Virus record (IMG/VR): IMGVR_UViG_2695420482_000015
Strand: one strand, 5' to 3'
Source of the DNA: a virus
Taxonomy: Duplodnaviria; Heunggongvirae; Uroviricota; Caudoviricetes
Length of the DNA: 38,662 nt
The notes under the pieces were generated by a model. That model was not told the DNA's origin and did no database searches. It saw only the letters and a program-made list of their open reading frames with translations. The position numbers were made by a program, and so were the translations under genes. Within the stretch, counting starts at the first letter, position 1. Each line of letters begins with the position of its first letter. Below, one piece after another: positions 1 through 30,330 of this stretch.

Positions 1-1518
1 TCATTCACCCTCCTGATGCGTGGTAGCGGTCCCATTGAAGGGCAAAATAAAATCCCCCAAACAGAAAACAGATTCTTCAGCGACGTAAATAAGCTGACCG
101 TTCAAGCGCAGTGAAACGGGCGCAGAAGTTCGAATCGCAATACGCTGCGCGTCGAGAGTGACCTGTAATTCGCAGCCCTGCCAGAACAGAGGGAAAGACA
201 ACTGTTGCCACTGCTCAGGTAACGCCGGATTGAGATGTAATTCACCGTCACGCACGCTCACCCCGGCAAAACCCTGAATCGCCCCCAGCCAGATAGCGCC
301 AGTTGCGGCAGCGTGGGTACCGTCATCACAGCTATGTGGATCAGCACCAAGATCGATTTCAGTCCCCTCGCGCCAGAACTGATAACTTTGGGTCAGCAGG
401 CCACAGCGTGCGGCAACAATGCCGTGGATTGCTTTACTTAATGACGAGTCGTGAATAGTGCGCGGTTCATAAAATTGCAGATAGGCAAGACACGATGCCG
501 CTGAGAACTGCTCCGGCAGCATGTAATTGAGCATCACCACATCAGCTTGTTTGAGGATCTGCATCTCGTTCACTTCTGCGCGTGAATAATCCAGCAGAAT
601 GGTTTGCTTCCCCGCCGCCGCTTTGTATTTCGCCAGATTAATCACCGGCTTAGCCATAAACGAATCATCCTGCGGCAAAACGCCGTCGGGCTGAATTTCT
701 GGCAGCCGCAGTTCTTTGAGGTACATTTCTGCACGATGAATAAACGCGTCGTCGCTACAGCCAAACTGACGAGCGATATTCAGCGCCTGCTGGACGTTGT
801 AATACGCCATATAGCTGGTGAAGGCGTTATTATTGACATGTTCGGTATATTCGTCTGGCCCAATAACATCATGAATTTCCAGACGGTCGTTAACCCTCAC
901 CGCGCGGCTAATCCAGAACTTTGCCGTCTCCAGAAGTAGCGCCATGCCTTCATGAGCAATGAAACTTTCATCCCCCGTGGTCCGCCAGTATTGAATAACC
1001 GCCCAGGCGATATCGGCCACCAGATGATGTTCCGCCTGCGCAGAGGCCACTTTTTGCCGCAACCCGGTACGAATGTTAATGGCAGCAAATTCCGGCGTCT
1101 CTTCTTCGCCGCTACGCGCGCTTTCCCACGGAAATAGCGCGCCCTGCCAGCCGTTGCGTCGCGCTTTCTCCTGCGCGCCAGGCAAGTTGTGCCAGCGATA
1201 ACGCAGTAAACTTCGGGCAACCATCGGATCGCTAAACAGATGGAACGGTAGCAAAAATACTTCTGTATCCCAGAAAACGTGGCCTTTGTAGCCTTCGCCG
1301 GTTAAACCTTTCGCCGCAATGCTGCTGCGCTCATCGTGGGCAGGCGTCATGATGCGCAGGTGATAAAGCGCATAATCTAACGCTTGCTGATCGTGCGCAT
1401 CGCCGCCGTTTACCGTGATACGACGTTTCTGCCACCATTGACGCCAGTTTTCTGTTGATGCTGCAAGAAGTTGGTCGTAACTCTGCTGCGCGCTGATGCG
1501 CCGCGCGATAAATGCACT
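1..1518 (-). CDS. ycjT: GH65-family glycoside phosphorylase (kojibiose phosphorylase YcjT-like), C-terminal ~505 codons; gene interrupted by prophage insertion
   Basis: ORF 1..1350 translation has GH65 catalytic-domain character (GHVFWDTEVF motif). The same frame stays open upstream to ~1518 with plausible protein sequence, then stops at the prophage junction. N-terminal ~250 codons are absent from the window. Symbol is from memory of the E. coli protein, not a search. Confidence 0.7.
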   Translation of the reverse strand, partial: SAFIARRISAQQSYDQLLAASTENWRQWWQKRRITVNGGDAHDQQALDYALYHLRIMTPAHDERSSIAAKGLTGEGYKGHVFWDTEVFLLPFHLFSDPMVARSLLRYRWHNLPGAQEKARRNGWQGALFPWESARSGEEETPEFAAINIRTGLRQKVASAQAEHHLVADIAWAVIQYWRTTGDESFIAHEGMALLLETAKFWISRAVRVNDRLEIHDVIGPDEYTEHVNNNAFTSYMAYYNVQQALNIARQFGCSDDAFIHRAEMYLKELRLPEIQPDGVLPQDDSFMAKPVINLAKYKAAAGKQTILLDYSRAEVNEMQILKQADVVMLNYMLPEQFSAASCLAYLQFYEPRTIHDSSLSKAIHGIVAARCGLLTQSYQFWREGTEIDLGADPHSCDDGTHAAATGAIWLGAIQGFAGVSVRDGELHLNPALPEQWQQLSFPLFWQGCELQVTLDAQRIAIRTSAPVSLRLNGQLIYVAEESVFCLGDFILPFNGTATTHQEGE

Positions 1519-2224: not shown

Positions 2225-2713
2225 GCGGCGAAAAGGGATGTGGGCACGACAGTCGGAACCGTTGCCGCTGGTGATGATTTACGCATAATAGGAGCACTTC
2301 AAAAGGCAAATAATCTTTATGAGTTAACAAATAAATCTGACGCAAGAGCTAATCTTGGGTTAGGAACCGTTGCAACAAAAAACGTGGGAAATAGTGCTGG
2401 GCAAATACCTGATATGTCTTACTGGTCTTCCGTATCGGGTGGCGTTAATTTCCCTAATGGATTCCAGATGCGATTCGGTGCTATCGCTGGTAATGGTGGA
2501 AAATTATTTTCTACGCCATTTACAAATCAGTGCTATGGCATTGTTTTCGGACAAACATATGTAGCCAACTACTGGATGTTCAGCCCGATGTACAGAGCAT
2601 CTGATCTGAGTAATACCGGTTTTGCATTCATTAACAAAACCTGGTCTGGCGTTCCGGGGACAGGTGCTCAGGACGCTGGTGAATCAGTTTTTTATATTGC
2701 AGTAGGGTATTAA
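2213..2713 (+). CDS. Alternate tail fibre C-terminal domain (S'v-like, promoterless; expressed only after inversion)
   Basis: Frame is open from the crossover site (…NVGLGEAAKRDVGTTVGT…) with no proper start of its own. Sits inside the invertible segment and is followed by a tail fibre assembly gene. Confidence 0.6.
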   Translation, partial: GLGEAAKRDVGTTVGTVAAGDDLRIIGALQKANNLYELTNKSDARANLGLGTVATKNVGNSAGQIPDMSYWSSVSGGVNFPNGFQMRFGAIAGNGGKLFSTPFTNQCYGIVFGQTYVANYWMFSPMYRASDLSNTGFAFINKTWSGVPGTGAQDAGESVFYIAVGY

Positions 2714-2714
2714 T

Positions 2715-3158
2715 ATGGAAATGGTTTATAGCGCCTCAAATAATAGTTTTTTCGCTAAAAATGATGTGGCGAAATATGAACAGGCCGGATGGGAACTTGC
2801 TGATATTGTCGAAGTGACATATGACACTTACCTGGAATTTATTGAAGACAGAACGTTGCAAGGGAAAGTACGCATCGCGGGTGATGATGGCCTTCCCACC
2901 TGGGGGGAAATTCCACCGCCAACTCATGAGGAACAAATTGCCGCAGCCGAACTGGAAAAGCAGCAATTGATTAATCAGGTCAACGAATACATATACAGTA
3001 AGCAATGGCCTGGTAAAGCAGCGATTGGTCGCCTGAAAGGTGAGGAACTGGCGCAATATAATTTGTGGCTGGATTATCTGGACGCACTGGAACTGGTCGA
3101 TACTTCCGGTGCGCCAGATATTGAATGGCCTACGCCTCCGGCAGTTCAGGCCAGATGA
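2715..3158 (+). CDS. Tail fibre assembly protein (alternate, U'-like)
   Basis: 147 aa; C-terminal motif NLWLDYLDALELVDTSGAPDIEWPTPP is typical of Tfa chaperones and parallels the C-terminus of the 3130..3723 protein. Confidence 0.8.
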   Translation: MEMVYSASNNSFFAKNDVAKYEQAGWELADIVEVTYDTYLEFIEDRTLQGKVRIAGDDGLPTWGEIPPPTHEEQIAAAELEKQQLINQVNEYIYSKQWPGKAAIGRLKGEELAQYNLWLDYLDALELVDTSGAPDIEWPTPPAVQAR

Positions 3159-3723
3159 CGTCCGGCGCTGTGCTGGTATCTGTTGCCGTCACCGCGTCAA
3201 TATAATCCAGCACAGCGTTAAGTCGGGTGTTTTCTGGCTGCGTCAGCTTCCGCCCGGCCTGTAATTTCAGTTGAATCAGACTGATGGAAGCCATTGCAGC
3301 ATCAATCAGCGACTGGCGCTGTGCTTCTGCAGCTTCTACTGCGGCGCTATGCTGTGCCTCGGTATCCGTCACCCATTTCTCACCATCCCATTTATCGTAT
3401 GGCGTTAACGGTGAAAGCGTGACATAACCGTCTTTGATGGCACCGATATAATCCACTGTAACAGCTGCGCCATTTTCAGTTGAGTAAACGGTCTCATTGC
3501 GATGGTCTTCTTCATGGCTCCATCCCTTACCCGTAAATACTGCCACTCTTCCCGGAATGTATTCGCCCGGGTCAATACCAGTGGAACAAACGGGCATACT
3601 TACGCCAGTATTAATATATTCATCAGACCAGCCCGTATATTCAGACGTTACTGCATCATAATAATAACAACGCATATCACCCGGCACTGTAGCCAGCCCA
3701 TTTTCATCAAAAACAGGTTTCAT
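3130..3723 (-). CDS. Tail fibre assembly protein (U-like)
   Basis: 197 aa; C-terminal NAVLDYIDAVTATDTSTAPDVIWPELP Tfa motif; immediately downstream of the fibre gene. Confidence 0.8.
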   Translation of the reverse strand: MKPVFDENGLATVPGDMRCYYYDAVTSEYTGWSDEYINTGVSMPVCSTGIDPGEYIPGRVAVFTGKGWSHEEDHRNETVYSTENGAAVTVDYIGAIKDGYVTLSPLTPYDKWDGEKWVTDTEAQHSAAVEAAEAQRQSLIDAAMASISLIQLKLQAGRKLTQPENTRLNAVLDYIDAVTATDTSTAPDVIWPELPEA

Positions 3724-5177
3724 TATGCAGCCCTCACAATATAATTAAAGGCGATGTTACGTGGACGGTTTTCATTAGCTGTTGGCACGACACGAGAGGC
3801 GTCGAATCCAAGGTCATCGGTTTTGCCTATATCAGTTGTGTTATTCGGCATTCTCGCAGATCGTGTTCCTGCATCATAAAAAGCCCCTCTGATTGCATCA
3901 AAAGACATACCGATCCCGCCATCTGCGAATCCCTCAATATTTCTTATTGCATCCCCCTGTGAAGATAATAATTGTCGCCCGGCATCCACACCACGTCCGT
4001 CATCCCAGCCACGAATAAATTCACCGCGTAAATCCGGCAATTTATTTGTCGGATAAACCTTTGCCAGTTCCGGGTATTCTTCAGCAGAAAAAGCCGCACC
4101 GTTGCATTTCAGCCAGCCAGTAGGCGGTGTGGCTGAAGGCCACGGAACAGGCACACCAACGGGTAATGCCGAACCTTCTCCCAAACCAAGGTAATTGAGG
4201 ACATCTTTTATACTGCCCTTAGCGATAATAGCGCGACCAATAGCTGTAAGGGTTGCCAGCTCTGCGCGGTCTGCTCCGGTAAAATAAGGCAACCGATCTG
4301 CTGCAGTGGCAAGTCCTGCCAGAGCAGTGAGCGTGGCATCTGCCGGTTGTTTTCCGTTTGCCAGATCGTATGCAGCCTTGACCGCTTTCGGTGTGGCGGC
4401 CAGTATTTCAGACGTGCTGTTGATGGCACTGCTCAATTGTACGGTGCCTTTTGCCGTCAGCGAGGCAGCAGGCACTCCCGTTATCTGACTCCACGGGTGA
4501 GTGTGGCTGACGGGCGCCTTGCCGGCTGCAAGGTCGTATGCAGCCTTGACCGCCTTCGGCGTGGCAGCCTCAGTTTCTGATTGACTGTCCGTGGCGCTGC
4601 TCAGTTGTACGGTGCCTTTTGCCGTCAGCGAGGCAGCAGGCACTCCCGTTATCTGACTCCACGGGTGAGTGTGGCTGACGGGCGCCTTGCCGGCTGCAAG
4701 GTCGTATGCAGCCTTGACCGCCTTCGGCGTGGCAGCCTCAGTTTCTGATTGACTGTCCGTGGCGCTGCTCAGTTGTACGGTGCCTTTTGCCGTCAGTGAA
4801 GCCGCAGGCACTCCCGTTATCTGACTCCACGGGTGAGTGTGGCTGGCAGGCGCCTTGCCGGCTGCCAGGTCGTATGCAGCCTTGACCGCTTTTGGTGTGG
4901 CGGCCAGCGTTTCAGAGGTGCTGTTGGTGGCACTGCTCAGTTGGGTGAACCCCTTAGCTGTCAGTGTCGCGTCCGGGTGGTTACGGGAACGTACGTGTTC
5001 AGCCAGTGACTGTGCGGCTTCCTCCGTTTTCTTCTTCAGCCATTTCGTCCTGTTTGCCAGTTGCCGGGGGGCTCGATTTGATATCCCGTCTGCACCACCC
5101 AGAACCGGATCTGATGTCTCCAGTTGATAGATATTTTCTTCCCACTTTTCTGTTTCATTCAGGTTTCCCATAATCAA
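3723..5177 (-). CDS. Tail fibre protein (S/H-like), constant N-terminal part plus invertible C-terminal part
   Basis: 484 aa with four tandem 56-aa fibre repeats (…ATPKAVKAAYDLAAGK…SHTHPWSQITG…). The gix-like site lies within the coding sequence. Confidence 0.9.
   Translation of the reverse strand: MIMGNLNETEKWEENIYQLETSDPVLGGADGISNRAPRQLANRTKWLKKKTEEAAQSLAEHVRSRNHPDATLTAKGFTQLSSATNSTSETLAATPKAVKAAYDLAAGKAPASHTHPWSQITGVPAASLTAKGTVQLSSATDSQSETEAATPKAVKAAYDLAAGKAPVSHTHPWSQITGVPAASLTAKGTVQLSSATDSQSETEAATPKAVKAAYDLAAGKAPVSHTHPWSQITGVPAASLTAKGTVQLSSAINSTSEILAATPKAVKAAYDLANGKQPADATLTALAGLATAADRLPYFTGADRAELATLTAIGRAIIAKGSIKDVLNYLGLGEGSALPVGVPVPWPSATPPTGWLKCNGAAFSAEEYPELAKVYPTNKLPDLRGEFIRGWDDGRGVDAGRQLLSSQGDAIRNIEGFADGGIGMSFDAIRGAFYDAGTRSARMPNNTTDIGKTDDLGFDASRVVPTANENRPRNIAFNYIVRAA
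4174..4199. other. gix/hix-like inversion crossover site (inside tail fibre gene)
   Basis: ccttctcccaaaccaaggtaattgag, in inverted orientation to 2201..2224. Falls on the LGLGE codons of the fibre; the alternate cassette carries VGLGE at its site. Confidence 0.7.
4296..4967. repeat. Tandem 168-bp repeats (about 4 copies) encoding 56-aa tail fibre repeats
   Basis: Near-identical DNA copies with period 168 seen directly (e.g. acggtgccttttgccgtcag at ~4441 and ~4609); flanking copies are more diverged. Confidence 0.8.
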
Positions 5178-5752: not shown

Positions 5753-6848
5753 CAGACACTCCAGTCATGTTAAGAGTGATTGCCGTACAGTTTGCCCATT
5801 CGTTTTCTGCCACCACCCGCAGTGCCGGTGTCACCAGTTCAACCTGGTACACCCCGGAAACGGACAATGCACTGATAATCTGGCTGGGGACAATATCGCG
5901 CCCCAGCGTGGCGGCACGTGATGCCACCCAGTTCTGTATGGCGCTGTTAGCGGCATCTTTTACAGACCTGGCATCCTGATCACGATAGATCGTAATCCTG
6001 GCTTCAATGGTGTAATCCACCTTCACTGGTGTTTTAGCCCGCACTGTATCAGTGAGTGGCCTGACTTTCTCATCAGAGCAGAAACTCTCTACCAGCGTGA
6101 GAACACCGCCGTCCGGCAGACCGGTACTGAGCAGCGGATACAGATCTACGGTCCCGGGAACCGGGGAAAGCACAGCAACATCGACAATGTTGGGATGGGC
6201 CTGCATGGCATGAAAGCGGTATGCGCCACGGCTTCCGGCATTGGTGAATGACTCCGGGGCCAGCCTGATACGCTCCCGGAGCCTGTCATCGTCTTCCTGT
6301 TCTGAACCGCCGGAACTGGCCGTCAGATTGCTCACCAGCAGGTCGACGTTATCAATCTCATCGAGTAACTGACTGACCTGCGCAGGTTGCCAGCCGTTAC
6401 CAGCGGTACCGGGTTCGGTACAGGTGGACGTGACATTGACCAGCAGCAATCCGGCCTTCAGTACCACATCTGTATCGGTGGCAAAAATAACGCTGTCGGA
6501 AGCGCTGACGCGGGTGCCTGCCGGGATCAGCACATCAATGGCCAGTGCCTCATCTACGGAGAACTGGAGCGTGGTAGTGGCAGGCTGCGCGGCAAGACGG
6601 TATACACCGACCAGTTCACCGAGGTAATCAATCATCGGCTCACGGGCAAAGGCGACCAGATTCTGCTTTGCTGCCTCCTGTACCGCAACCCTGACCAGCA
6701 TTTCGCGATAGGCCCACAGATCAATCAGCAGACGTTCTGCCTGTGCCGGGTACAGCGTTTTGCCGGTATCCGCTTCATACTTCGCAATCATTTCTGCCGT
6801 GATTTTGTCGGCATCGCGTTCAATAAAATCGGGTTCTGTCAGCGCCAT
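5745..6848 (-). CDS. Baseplate protein, P2 gpJ-like
   Basis: 367 aa; baseplate J-like sequence and synteny (W-J-I-H). Confidence 0.8.
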   Translation of the reverse strand: MALTEPDFIERDADKITAEMIAKYEADTGKTLYPAQAERLLIDLWAYREMLVRVAVQEAAKQNLVAFAREPMIDYLGELVGVYRLAAQPATTTLQFSVDEALAIDVLIPAGTRVSASDSVIFATDTDVVLKAGLLLVNVTSTCTEPGTAGNGWQPAQVSQLLDEIDNVDLLVSNLTASSGGSEQEDDDRLRERIRLAPESFTNAGSRGAYRFHAMQAHPNIVDVAVLSPVPGTVDLYPLLSTGLPDGGVLTLVESFCSDEKVRPLTDTVRAKTPVKVDYTIEARITIYRDQDARSVKDAANSAIQNWVASRAATLGRDIVPSQIISALSVSGVYQVELVTPALRVVAENEWANCTAITLNMTGVSDD

Positions 6849-7186
6849 AGCAGCTCCTGAGTCCGGGTCTGTCCGTCTGAGCCTTTCCAGCTCACCCGGA
6901 GCGTAAGATGTTCGCCGTCGACGGCGGGTTTAACTGACATAAGCTGGCAGCGGGGCTCCCAGCGCCGGATGGCATCGACGGATTCGCGCACCACATGCGG
7001 AATGGCCCGGTCTACAGGCCAGTCGATATAAAGATGCAGATTGCTGCCGAACTCCGGGCGATGCGGGTCGCTGCCGCGGGGAGTCCGCAGGATAATTTGA
7101 ATCGCCTGCCGGATATCATCCAGCCCCCGGACAATTTCGCCGGGAGCCTGCAGGGTCGGTTGCCAGAATACTGAGGTTGTTTTCAT
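6839..7186 (-). CDS. Baseplate wedge protein, gpW/gp25-like
   Basis: 115 aa; size and sequence typical of GPW/gp25; synteny. Confidence 0.75.
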   Translation of the reverse strand: MKTTSVFWQPTLQAPGEIVRGLDDIRQAIQIILRTPRGSDPHRPEFGSNLHLYIDWPVDRAIPHVVRESVDAIRRWEPRCQLMSVKPAVDGEHLTLRVSWKGSDGQTRTQELLWR

Positions 7187-7240
7187 GGGGGCAGTATTGC
7201 CCCCGTGCGGGAACGCTGATATTAAAGGCGTTTAAAAAGC

Positions 7241-7837
7241 TCAGTGGGAGTGGTGGCTGGAGTTTTCGCCATCAGACAACATACTGCCCGTGGCATGGGC
7301 ATTCCCTTTAATCTCGATATTGCCATGGATGGTCGCGGTAACACCTTCACCACCAGAACCCGCCATGCCTCCTTCGTAAATCAGCTTACCCCTGACACGC
7401 AGATCTCCGGTAAGTTCGGTTTCCGGTGCGTCAATCGTGGCTTTCTGTGTTTTCAATACCACATCAGCACCACACTCAATGACAATATGCTCAATGCCGC
7501 CCCGGATGGTCAGAGTGTGCGTCTTCCGGTTGTAGCTGTACTCTGCACCATCAGCAAACCGGGTTCCCCGGATATTTTTGTCACTGAACGGTGGTTTATC
7601 GACGTCTGAATACACCGCGCCCAGAATAACACCATCCTCGCCGTTGGCATCGAGCAGCACCTCAACCTGCTCCCCCACGTCAGGGAGCCAGTAATCTTTG
7701 TTATCCTGGGTATTGCGCTGCAGCACGTTAAGCCAGTTTGTGCGCAGGTTATCGCATTCAGGCAGACGAACGCGGGCCTGAACCCTGTCGGCATCAACGG
7801 CACTGACCGTACCGACCTGACGAGTGACACCAGTCAT
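7241..7837 (-). CDS. Baseplate assembly/spike protein, P2 gpV-like
   Basis: 198 aa; gpV-like N-terminal OB region and glycine-rich C-terminus; synteny. Confidence 0.75.
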   Translation of the reverse strand: MTGVTRQVGTVSAVDADRVQARVRLPECDNLRTNWLNVLQRNTQDNKDYWLPDVGEQVEVLLDANGEDGVILGAVYSDVDKPPFSDKNIRGTRFADGAEYSYNRKTHTLTIRGGIEHIVIECGADVVLKTQKATIDAPETELTGDLRVRGKLIYEGGMAGSGGEGVTATIHGNIEIKGNAHATGSMLSDGENSSHHSH

Positions 7838-26876: not shown

Positions 26877-27647
26877 ATGAAAATGCAGACATTACCCATC
26901 GTTCCATGGATTGGTGGCAAACGCCGCCTTGCAAAACACATCCTGCCGCTGTTTCCGGCGCATGAATGTTATGTGGAGCCGTTTTGTGGGGCAGCAGCGC
27001 TCTATTTTCTTAAGGTACCCGGCAAGATCGAAGTCATTAATGATATCAACGGTGAACTGGTGAACCTGTATCGGGTGGTAAAACATCATCTGGAAGAATT
27101 TGTACGCCAGTTCAAATGGGCGCTGGTCAGCCGGCAGATCTACAAATGGCTGCAGATCACCCCGGAAGAAACACTGACGGATATCCAGCGTGCAGCACGG
27201 TTCTACTACCTTCAGAAGCAGGCGTTTGGAGGCAAGGTGGCGGAGCACAGCTTTGGTACCTCCACCATATCCCCGCCACGCTTCAACCTGCTGCGTATTG
27301 AAGAAGAACTGTCAGCGGCACACCTGCGGCTTTCCAGAACGGTCATAGAACACATGGACTGGCAACAGTGCATAGAACGATATGATCGCCCGCATACGTT
27401 GTTCTACTGTGACCCTCCATACTGGGGAACGGAAGGTTATGGTGTGGAGTTCGGACTAGAAAATTATGATCATATGGCAGATTTAGCACGCAGGATCAAA
27501 GGGAAGATGATTATATCGGTGAACGATATCCCGGAAATGCGGCAGGCATTCAACGGTCTAAATATTCAGTCGGTTGATATCAGCTACAACCTCAAGATCA
27601 CTGGCAAATCCAGTCGCAAGAAGGAACTCATTATCCTCAACTTTTGA
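26877..27647 (+). CDS. DNA N6-adenine methyltransferase (Dam-like, orphan)
   Basis: 256 aa; N-terminal WIGGKRRL and FCGAAALYF AdoMet-binding motifs and DPPY catalytic motif (FYCDPPYWGT); no adjacent restriction endonuclease gene recognised. Confidence 0.85.
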   Translation: MKMQTLPIVPWIGGKRRLAKHILPLFPAHECYVEPFCGAAALYFLKVPGKIEVINDINGELVNLYRVVKHHLEEFVRQFKWALVSRQIYKWLQITPEETLTDIQRAARFYYLQKQAFGGKVAEHSFGTSTISPPRFNLLRIEEELSAAHLRLSRTVIEHMDWQQCIERYDRPHTLFYCDPPYWGTEGYGVEFGLENYDHMADLARRIKGKMIISVNDIPEMRQAFNGLNIQSVDISYNLKITGKSSRKKELIILNF

Positions 27648-28842
27648 CCGAATAGTAAGACTTCATGCAGTGAATCAAGTACTGCATGAAGTCAAGGGCT
27701 GGTTTTGTGTACCAAAAATAAACAGTGATAGCGGTAATAATTCCCATAACTAGAACACCACGTATAATCCAGAACGTACGTTTCTGCGTGTCTAGTCGCG
27801 CAGAAATACTGCTAAATACACCAGCCACGTCATCTTTAATGAAGGAATATTCCTTATTAATCTGTTTTTCTTTGTATTCAATTTCTTCGCCTAAGGCCTT
27901 TATAGATTGCATCTGGTTCGAAAGTGCCAGCCAGATTAACGTTGCAGCAAAAATGCATCCCAGAAGAATTATTGTGTTTGTTATCCCTTGGCCTGACCAT
28001 TTCGTAGCCACTTTGAATTGGGTAGCTACGATAACAGAGGCAACAGGAATGCCAAGTATATGGTTCTGGATATCTGAAAACGCTTTGTGGATTTTACCCA
28101 TTTCTTCGACTTTTGCAGCACGCAGTTGATCCATTACTTTGTCATAAGAGAATCCAGAAGAGTAGATACGATACCCTTTCAGAAACTTTTCATGCAGACG
28201 CTGAATATTGTCCAGTAAATAAGCGAATACTAGAGGTGAATCAATTCCATCACTAACTGCTTGGATACTTTCAATCAGAATATCTAGCTTCTGATCCTTA
28301 TGGGTATCATCATTGAAACAAGCTATAAGGTTATCAAGATACTCTCTTTGCAAATTTTGTACATTTTCTGCAGCGAAGTGCGGTAATAGCTTGATAACTT
28401 CTTTTTTCAGAAAAACTAACTGACAAGTTGAGTTATCAAAGTAGGCCGCGGCCTCTTTTAGCAGGTTAACGAACTCGAGAATCTTCCGGTAGTTGCTGAT
28501 GAAAACGGGGATATCTTCATCATCATTACGAAACTTTGTTTCTAGGATGAAGTAATTAGCTGGCTCAAGGCACTGATGCTTTGGAGCATTTAGCAATTTT
28601 TCATGGGTGGAAAACACAAGTCCCAGTCCACTCCGTGGTGACGTCACACGTAGGATGATCGTGTTACCTGGAGCGATAGTGCCTGTATCAATAGAAAGAC
28701 CATATTCACGAGGATCATCAAGCAAAGTATCAACCAGATCACAATCGGACTGATCTAAGAGCAACAGCGAACCGACACGAAACCCCTCTTGGAATTCCAT
28801 ACGACGATACAGATCTGTCAGCATCTCAAATGAAATCGCCAC
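27637..28842 (-). CDS. Hypothetical protein with soluble N-terminal domain and two C-terminal TM helices (candidate effector)
   Basis: 401 aa; GTG start 2 nt after the upstream stop with GAGG RBS (translational coupling); TM segments ITNTIILLGCIFAATLIWLALS and FWIIRGVLVMGIITAITVYFWY; AT-rich. Confidence 0.7.
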   Translation of the reverse strand: MAISFEMLTDLYRRMEFQEGFRVGSLLLLDQSDCDLVDTLLDDPREYGLSIDTGTIAPGNTIILRVTSPRSGLGLVFSTHEKLLNAPKHQCLEPANYFILETKFRNDDEDIPVFISNYRKILEFVNLLKEAAAYFDNSTCQLVFLKKEVIKLLPHFAAENVQNLQREYLDNLIACFNDDTHKDQKLDILIESIQAVSDGIDSPLVFAYLLDNIQRLHEKFLKGYRIYSSGFSYDKVMDQLRAAKVEEMGKIHKAFSDIQNHILGIPVASVIVATQFKVATKWSGQGITNTIILLGCIFAATLIWLALSNQMQSIKALGEEIEYKEKQINKEYSFIKDDVAGVFSSISARLDTQKRTFWIIRGVLVMGIITAITVYFWYTKPALDFMQYLIHCMKSYYSVKS

Positions 28843-28844
28843 GA

Positions 28845-29852
28845 TTAAACCTCAGTCATCCACATTTCCCTAAATTCTTCAGGTACATTACGTAGGGTGA
28901 TAATATTTGTTTCCGGATCATAATCAATATAGCCTTCAGTTTTCCCTTCCCGGTCAAACTTAAGTTCCCAATATTTAGACTTGCCTTTAAAAGATACCAG
29001 AGCCCGAATGACTCGACCATCAGGAACGAAGCCATCCGATAACTCCAACTCTTCAGCAGCAAGTTTACCAGATAACTCCTCGGGAGCCTGGGGCCAAATG
29101 GCATTAACAAGGGTTTCAAGACTAAGTGGTTCACCAGCCTTACTTAGTGCATGTAAGTGTTCAAACGCACTCTTAAGAAATGCATCTTTTTCAGCGCCGT
29201 CAAGTCCTTTCTCTGCCGCAAATGCTTTTAAAACGTCACGTAACTTTTCAGACTCTCGTTTGGCGATTAAGACATCATTACAGCCGAGGAACTGTTTAAA
29301 ATAGTTTGAAACATTACCTTGCCCCTTAAGAAAACTGATATAGCGCTCTGCGCCACTTTCCCACGCGGTTAAGTCAATGCGCCCAGCCATACGCAGCTTA
29401 GCAATATCAAGATAGGTACTATCTTGGATGTTAAAATCATCTGTGACAGTGGATCCAATGGTAGCGCTTACAATAGCTATCAACAGGTGTTCATTGTGTC
29501 CTATCACGATATTTGCAAAAAGAACATAACCACCAGTAGCCATGTTTTCTCGCTGAGAACGTTCCGTCAGGTGATGCATCATTCGGCAGGAACTTTGGTA
29601 GAAATCATCAACACCTTCGAGAAAGTCCCCAGCCATTCGTTCCATAGGATAGTTATCCGTATCGCCTTCAAAATAGCCATAACCTTTACCTGTGCGTCCT
29701 GCATATTTTGCACAAATATCGTTTATAAGGCGCTGGGAGGCTTCAGTAACTAGACCTTCTTCAGGACTCAATCTCTCAGAAGCGTCTCCATTTTGTTGTT
29801 TGTCTAAAATGTGAACTACAACGTGTTTAACTTCAATGGTCTGCTCAGACAT
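28845..29852 (-). CDS. Nucleoid-associated protein NdpA/YejK-like (NA37 family) paralog, phage-encoded
   Basis: 335 aa, same length as E. coli YejK; recalled YejK blocks align (GGYVLF…LLIAIVS; …YLDIAKLRMAGRIDLTAWESGAERYISFLKGQG…; C-terminal …YDPETNIITLR…). From memory, no search run. Confidence 0.65.
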   Translation of the reverse strand: MSEQTIEVKHVVVHILDKQQNGDASERLSPEEGLVTEASQRLINDICAKYAGRTGKGYGYFEGDTDNYPMERMAGDFLEGVDDFYQSSCRMMHHLTERSQRENMATGGYVLFANIVIGHNEHLLIAIVSATIGSTVTDDFNIQDSTYLDIAKLRMAGRIDLTAWESGAERYISFLKGQGNVSNYFKQFLGCNDVLIAKRESEKLRDVLKAFAAEKGLDGAEKDAFLKSAFEHLHALSKAGEPLSLETLVNAIWPQAPEELSGKLAAEELELSDGFVPDGRVIRALVSFKGKSKYWELKFDREGKTEGYIDYDPETNIITLRNVPEEFREMWMTEV

Positions 29853-29922
29853 TAGCTATCCACCTTATTTTTTATTGCTTAATGGCAAATAATTTCTGCT
29901 ATATGTTCTCGTTAGGAACACA

Positions 29923-30330
29923 TTAACCCACATTTTTTAACCGCTCAATCGTTGCGGATAATTCCTTCAGTTGTTTTTCCATCTCAATCACACGCTGTTT
30001 TTCTTCAGCGCCTCGCATGAGATCTCGCCGAACCTCAGGATCTAACTGGTTTAGAAGTTCAAGCATTTTAAGGTCTGACGGGCTGAATTGATGTTGTGTT
30101 GGTACAGCAACAATTTCTTTAGATGGAATATGTTCTTTACCGGTAAGTAGCCAATCGATCGATACACCCAAATGGGTGCTTAGCGCAACAAGAGCCTCTG
30201 CGTTTGGTTCTCTCTCTCCACGCAAATAGTTTTGAAGTGAGCGATATGGAATTTTTGATAAGTTAGATAATGCCTTTATTGTCATGCCATTAGCATCCAT
30301 CACTTCACGCAATCTCTCTTTTGTACTCAT
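29923..30330 (-). CDS. Prophage repressor, XRE-family HTH (c-like)
   Basis: Start at internal Met (MSTKERLREV…), 135 aa; N-terminal HTH_XRE and C-terminal coiled coil; divergent from the ner-like early operon. Confidence 0.75.
   Translation of the reverse strand: MSTKERLREVMDANGMTIKALSNLSKIPYRSLQNYLRGEREPNAEALVALSTHLGVSIDWLLTGKEHIPSKEIVAVPTQHQFSPSDLKMLELLNQLDPEVRRDLMRGAEEKQRVIEMEKQLKELSATIERLKNVG

Follow-up and report, generated by a model that had tools for sequence, protein, structure and literature searches.

The 38,662-nucleotide sequence IMGVR_UViG_2695420482_000015 of the IMG/VR collection (hereafter the window, i.e., this stretch at its full length) belongs to a Mu-like transposable prophage of Escherichia coli and carries two adjacent genes on its minus strand, here termed A and B, which probably represent a prophage-carried anti-phage module of the DS-1 or Type II PANGU kind, a function assigned by homology. 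Both open reading frames (ORFs) were confirmed in the ORF list of the window. Gene A (28845-29852, minus strand; ATG start, RefSeq WP_000003711.1) encodes a YejK/NdpA-like protein of 335 amino acids (aa), the proposed DNA-bound sensor, and gene B (27637-28842, minus strand; GTG start, RefSeq WP_001007985.1) encodes a 401-aa membrane protein homologous to DS-1B, the proposed effector. As extrapolated from the published relatives, A would sit on the chromosome of the lysogen and would be released when a superinfecting phage degrades or fragments the host DNA. Released A could then bind the acidic N-terminal domain of B and switch on its membrane part, and B, by damaging the inner membrane, would stop the infected cell before the phage cycle is completed, i.e., by abortive infection.

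DS-1, numbered system 1 in the DefensePredictor study, was experimentally found to be anti-phage in E. coli (DeWeirdt et al., Science 2026, PMC13092281). It comprises DS-1A (WP_000355468.1, 391 aa, at 220602-221777), which features a zinc ribbon and an NA37 domain, and the 404-aa transmembrane (TM) protein DS-1B (WP_000150292.1, at 221780-222994). Carried in MG1655 on a low-copy plasmid under its native promoter, DS-1 reached -log efficiency of plating (EOP) values of 7.6 for Bas1, 2.7 for Bas26, 1.7 for Bas3, 1.7 for T3 and 1.0 for T5 (DeWeirdt et al., 2026). In the parts of the study available to us, the YejK domain is listed as newly validated in defence, and the mechanism of DS-1 is not analysed. 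A 40%-identical homologue of A, WP_077474557.1, is among the novel defence genes predicted in the DefensePredictor tables (DeWeirdt et al., 2026); WP_001007985.1 and WP_000003711.1 were not among the table rows listed.

Both proteins of the pair are related to this system at a distance. Each matched its counterpart of the two NCBIfam DS-1 models, A the DS1_1 and B the DS1_2 model, although below the curated cut-offs. BLASTP aligned A with DS-1A over 196 aa (23% identity, E 8e-9) and B with DS-1B over 302 aa (23% identity, E 6e-10), and an hhalign comparison of the B-family and DS-1B-family alignments gave a probability of 99.2% (E 1.1e-19) across 353 columns, a stretch that begins at the N-terminus and includes the first membrane helices. 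By these comparisons, B is truly, if distantly, homologous to DS-1B. The pair falls into a DS-1-like superfamily as delimited by homology to DS-1B over the length of the protein and by a tightly coupled, same-strand NA37 gene directly upstream. A previous interpretation made from the letters of this DNA (the sequence-only reading) had been unable to match the pair to any named defence system. Because the pair can be assigned to a known one, an outcome which that reading itself had named as speaking against it, the claim of novelty no longer holds.

The second relative, PANGU, comprises operons with nucleoid-associated proteins (NAPs) of a YejK-like type that act by abortive infection (Li et al., April 2026 preprint, bioRxiv 10.64898/2026.04.06.716658). 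In Type I, the NAP coats the chromosome, requiring DNA of at least ~400 bp for binding, is freed when T4 degrades the host genome and then activates the effector by binding to its acidic "DNA-mimicking" domain (Li et al., 2026). Type II consists of the NAP Pag2A and the effector Pag2B, the latter with an acidic domain at its N-terminus and a TM domain at its C-terminus; both genes are needed and neither is toxic alone (Li et al., 2026). The dissociation constant (KD) for the binding of Pag2A to the acidic N-domain of Pag2B in isolation is 19 nM, a fusion of Pag2A to green fluorescent protein (GFP) leaves the nucleoid upon T4 infection, and the growth curves of Type II indicate abortive infection (Li et al., 2026).

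Gene A encodes a full-length member of the YejK family. The Pfam model NA37 (PF04245) matched residues 12-327 at 1e-80 and was covered almost completely (model positions 1-324 of 325), phrog_3767 matched at 7e-117, and the protein is collinear with the solved YejK structure (PDB 9be2) over residues 4-330 (E 6.8e-30, 107.8 bits), so that its initial description as a full-length YejK/NdpA paralogue stands. Against the NCBIfam YejK equivalog NF001557, A scored 186.2 bits and thus below the cut-off of 341, for which reason we consider it a diverged YejK paralogue within PF04245 and not an orthologue. When the genes were compared with a copy of 92% identity from another E. coli genome, the ratio of nonsynonymous to synonymous substitution rates (dN/dS) was 0.04 for A and 0.08 for B, with 0.12 for the N-domain of B and 0.035 for its membrane part. 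Both are consequently real genes under strong purifying selection.

Gene B belongs to a large family. It matched phrog_5023 at 6e-143, a Pfam scan of the protein returned no family, and, with clusters formed at 50% identity, a B-family profile collected 1,295 representatives at E<=1e-3, 404 of them at E<=1e-30. An AlphaFold2 model of full-length B built on 52 homologues reached a predicted local distance difference test (pLDDT) score of 82.5, and a domain-only model of residues 1-232 reached 93.7, with a predicted template modelling (pTM) score of 0.88. The models predict a compact alpha/beta and helical N-domain, followed by four long helices (residues 233-275, 284-331, 333-378 and 380-400). 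The soluble N-domain (residues 1-232; 28147-28842, minus strand) is acidic, with an isoelectric point (pI) of 4.8 and a net charge of -12 as compared to a family median of -7, and is a candidate DNA-mimic-like docking domain for A. Residues 233-401 (27637-28146, minus strand) form the most conserved block of the family and align with DS-1B; they comprise a juxtamembrane helix with an FSYDK...IPVA motif and hydrophobic helices. According to Kyte-Doolittle analysis, the latter are two strongly hydrophobic helices at aa 285-311 (27910-27990, minus strand) and aa 356-378 (27709-27777, minus strand) and a weaker one at aa 262-280 (28003-28059, minus strand), which bears the most conserved motif of the family. 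Neither the full model nor the N-domain gave a meaningful Foldseek match to solved structures (best E 0.37), and the B profile matched no PDB sequence; the soluble domain, whose fold had been unassigned from the start, hence stays without a structural match.

The two genes are arranged as a compact unit. As read directly from the sequence, the junction (28840-28857, minus strand) has the form GAGG-N5-TAA-TC-GTG, i.e., B starts 2 nt past the stop codon of A, as had been noted before, and possesses its own Shine-Dalgarno motif (GAGG), 8 nt upstream of the GTG, within the end of A. In 52 of 54 homologous loci, the distance from the A stop to the B start lies between -20 and +27 nt, and translational coupling of A and B is likely, judging from this arrangement. 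Directly upstream of A lies a gene for a CI-like helix-turn-helix (HTH) repressor (29923-30330, minus strand; Pfam HTH_3 and Phage_CI_repr, RefSeq annotation), and the 70 nt from the repressor stop to the ATG of A form a leader (29853-29922, minus strand) that carries an AAGGTGG Shine-Dalgarno motif. The same leader is conserved in loci in which a methylase, and not the repressor, is the upstream neighbour, and therefore belongs to the cassette. A scan between repressor and A revealed no terminator-like element. From this layout, it is possible that the pair is co-transcribed with, or just downstream of, the repressor gene, in which case it would be made in the lysogen; expression there could proceed by read-through from the repressor or from a promoter that escaped recognition.

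Several points weigh against placing the pair with DS-1 and Type II PANGU. Identity to DS-1 is only ~23% for both proteins, and both DS-1 equivalog cut-offs were missed by a wide margin, with A scoring 63.7 bits against NF053868 (DS1_1 nucleoid-associated anti-phage protein; cut-off 330) and B 75.9 bits against NF053869 (DS1_2 anti-phage protein; cut-off 315). Because of these scores, we treat A/B as a separate subfamily and not as DS-1 in the strict sense. Moreover, A lacks the N-terminal zinc ribbon of DS-1A, as its NA37 domain starts at residue 12 with no extra domain, and the acidity of the N-domain is not universal in the B family, where the charge spans -15 to +2. The likeness to Type II PANGU is one of architecture and not of Pag2A/Pag2B sequences, and the preprint itself leaves the activation of Pag2B by Pag2A unresolved (Li et al., 2026). 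PADLOC-DB 2.0, a search proposed at the outset, gave no defence match for A and a weak KwaA match for B. Finally, a promoter scan found no convincing sigma-70 promoter for the pair and none recognisable in the 70-nt leader. The sole promoter-like match, at 29987-29958, was weak and lies within the repressor gene near its end. The number of matches in the promoter and terminator scan did not exceed shuffled expectation, for which reason the regulatory statements made here are inferred.

The KwaA match leads to the best surviving alternative, a membrane exclusion system resembling Kiwa or Sie, in which B would act as a sensor of phage attachment or injection while A would block replication by binding phage DNA as it enters, with no dependence on chromosome damage and no cell death. 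Kiwa likewise combines a membrane protein with a DNA-binding partner, and residues 262-394 of B, i.e., its hydrophobic region, matched the PADLOC KwaA model (E 8e-5, 21 bits). In addition, DS-1 acts most strongly on siphoviruses such as Bas1 and not on T4 (DeWeirdt et al., 2026), and its trigger may therefore differ from that of PANGU. On the other hand, A showed no match to KwaB (DUF4868) in the PADLOC scan, the large soluble N-domain of B lies outside the KwaA match, and no Kiwa proteins were among the structural matches listed for B. Altogether, we regard exclusion of this type as improbable.

For the DS-1-like assignment, the distribution of the pair is informative. Of 5,426 complete E. 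coli genomes, 19 carried the exact cassette, always on the chromosome, at differing positions and always within the same prophage type. Klebsiella phage KP12 and Escherichia phage Phi06_2974 B matched the query in two pieces only (26% of it) and lack the pair. The sister phage KP12, which is annotated, keeps the methylase and a repressor homologue, and an unrelated 177-aa ORF fills the slot of the pair, which consequently qualifies as accessory cargo. The non-core position proposed by the sequence-only reading is thereby supported, as is its defence character by the homology to DS-1, and abortive infection as the mode of action is the part that is carried over from the relatives. In KP12 (locus L003), the variable region holds different cargo, at 2668-3234 and 4296-4829, comprising the 177-aa ORF in the slot and a DUF2441 ORF between holin and methylase; in a comparison of the KP12 ORFs with Pfam and PADLOC, DUF2441 was the sole match and the 177-aa ORF had none.

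A scan of IMG/VR recovered 47 viral loci with a B homologue. An NA37 gene lies directly upstream of B, on the same strand, in all 45 IMG/VR loci with upstream sequence and in seven of seven other loci. The identities of A and B to their counterparts are correlated (r=0.98), with A being the better conserved in 53 of 54 loci. A and B are thus co-diverging, always adjacent, in the same order and tightly coupled in the loci sampled. In Mu-like phages, the pair occurs on either side of the methylase; in lambdoid prophages, it lies between the antiterminator Q and holin/lysozyme, usually on the strand opposite the lytic operons; and in P2-like myoviruses, it adjoins gpD and the tape-measure gene. 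Further carriers are Sinorhizobium phage phi2LM21, an Acinetobacter prophage and a Paraburkholderia island that has an Mrr-type nuclease and MazE in its vicinity. The pair hence recurs at accessory-gene ("moron") positions of unrelated prophages, and the neighbourhood survey, which could have confined it to a single phage lineage, placed it in several unrelated prophage types and a genomic island.

This distribution also bears on the second alternative, namely that the module benefits the phage itself, with the NAP remodelling the nucleoid or modulating topoisomerases during transposition or replication and B anchoring DNA at the membrane. Host YejK, a nucleoid protein, is said to interact with topoisomerases, and the pair adjoins the repressor and early control region, which would suit such a role. 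However, it is missing from close relatives that retain the flanking genes, occurs in phages of unrelated replication strategies as well as in a non-phage island, and is mostly carried opposite the lytic operons in lambdoid prophages; furthermore, its homologue DS-1 protects from a plasmid without phage genes (DeWeirdt et al., 2026). The nucleoid or topoisomerase modulator that had been offered as an alternative from the beginning found no support in these data, as the pair is not core to a phage lineage, and we consider a role in the phage's own life cycle very improbable. A lysis-timing accessory such as a holin regulator, or an addiction module of the toxin-antitoxin type stabilising the prophage, is less probable still: the pair repeatedly adjoins holin/endolysin genes in Mu-like and lambdoid phages and B, as a small-TM membrane protein, could be toxic, yet accessory genes typically occupy the Q-holin or repressor-holin slot, the pair often runs against the lysis genes and is found at a distance from them as well (by P2-like tail genes and in the genomic island), and neither gene of Type II PANGU is toxic alone (Li et al., 2026). 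A report on a flagellum-dependent toxin-antitoxin system of Yersinia (PMC12643550) proved unrelated to the pair. All three alternatives have little support.

With the DS-1/Type II PANGU assignment as a starting point, a wider joint reading appears conceivable, albeit doubtful. Here, the B/DS-1B family would be the effector family of Type II PANGU and would mainly serve prophage-carried exclusion. In the Mu-like phage, the cassette would be expressed with the repressor, like rexAB of lambda, and could be tolerated because transposable phages need an intact host chromosome and so do not trip a sensor of its degradation. If so, carriage of the cassette would track the replication mode of the carrier and would select against competitors that degrade the chromosome.

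Within the window, the genes around the pair agree with the two-gene operon between the repressor and the lysis/late genes that had been described before, and add one detail: a Dam-type adenine methylase gene (26877-27647, plus strand; Pfam MethyltransfD12 and TIGR00571 dam) stands between B and the holin, with the holin and SLT lysis genes lying beyond. It is convergent with B, overlaps its 3' end by 11 nt and is not part of the system. In fact, the methylase was considered as a third component and rejected, as KP12 has the methylase without the pair and loci L016-L019 have the pair without the methylase. In Sinorhizobium phage phi2LM21 (L004), an adenine methylase gene is likewise convergent right after the homologous pair. 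In each of three unrelated loci, a gene for an SRAP/YedK protein (COG2135) is no more than a few kb away from the pair, at 6802-7467 in the Sinorhizobium phage (L004), at 2862-3497 in the Acinetobacter prophage (L005) and at 2093-2659 in Shewanella (L010), which could be a coincidence of prophage cargo or a link to the sensing of DNA damage.

The GC content is ~40% in the A/B region and 55-60% in the rest of the phage, whose Mu-like character is reflected by a DDE transposase, a MuB-like ATPase, Mu-type portal and F proteins and a Gin-like invertase. In Mu as commonly described, all early and late genes run in one direction. In the window, a central accessory region of low GC content (26.5-30.5 kb) separates early genes, which run outward on the plus strand from ~30.4 kb, from late genes, which run outward on the minus strand from ~26.6 kb, a layout that also occurs in the other E. 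coli genomes with this prophage. The window starts within a host gene for a GH65 glycosyl hydrolase, of which the C-terminal 449 aa are left at positions 4-1350 (minus strand) and the N-domain is missing, and a Gin/Hin-type invertase gene follows at 1575-2345, adjoining tail-fibre and tail-fibre-assembly genes. This succession of a truncated host gene and the invertase places the end of the prophage and its junction with the host at ~1350-1570, and the phage apparently disrupted the host GH65 gene. A search for inverted repeats of an invertible segment near the invertase and tail-fibre genes yielded nothing clear.

The class of system represented by A/B is already known; what is new is a divergent, prophage-borne pair that forms a distinct subfamily. 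It suggests that the recently described YejK-sensor defences are also carried by temperate phages as lysogen-protecting cargo, and it points to classic slots for accessory genes, which in Mu-like phages lie downstream of the repressor and in lambdoid phages between Q and holin. PANGU systems were found via defence-island linkage, and the preprint neither mentions prophages nor cites DefensePredictor (Li et al., 2026); prophage carriage of these defences was likewise not found stated in the parts of PMC13092281 available to us. The B family is now delimited, with ~1,300 representatives at 50% identity, no Pfam model and a confidently predicted N-domain without a solved relative, which makes it a concrete target for structural and mechanistic work. 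Its size and structural novelty, the ecology of the prophage cargo and the putative link between DS-1 and PANGU are what remains of special interest.

Set beside known systems, A/B compares as follows. A shares the full-length fold family of host YejK/NdpA, with which it is collinear over residues 4-330; unlike the host protein, it is divergent and encoded by a mobile element, and B accompanies it at each of the homologous loci examined. In layout, the pair recalls lambda RexA/RexB, an exclusion module of a cytoplasmic sensor and a membrane effector whose genes follow cI on the same transcript. Both are two-gene modules directly downstream of the repressor and on its strand, an analogy for which we claim no sequence relationship, and the adjacency to the repressor is not conserved in related A/B loci, where a methylase separates the two. 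Type II PANGU shares the architecture, i.e., a bicistronic unit in which a YejK-like NAP is combined with an effector whose N-domain is acidic and whose TM region is C-terminal. DS-1 has the gene order in common, with an NA37/YejK protein followed by a ~400-aa protein with C-terminal TM helices, and the identical 2-nt gap. DS-1A differs by its N-terminal zinc ribbon (CxxC...CxxC), behind which NA37 occupies residues 42-382, and the score of A is higher for canonical YejK (186 bits) than for DS-1A (64 bits). DS-1-type pairs are also prophage cargo, located in the Q-holin slot of lambdoid prophages and also with a 2-nt gap, whereas the A/B copy described here lies in a Mu-like prophage downstream of the repressor.

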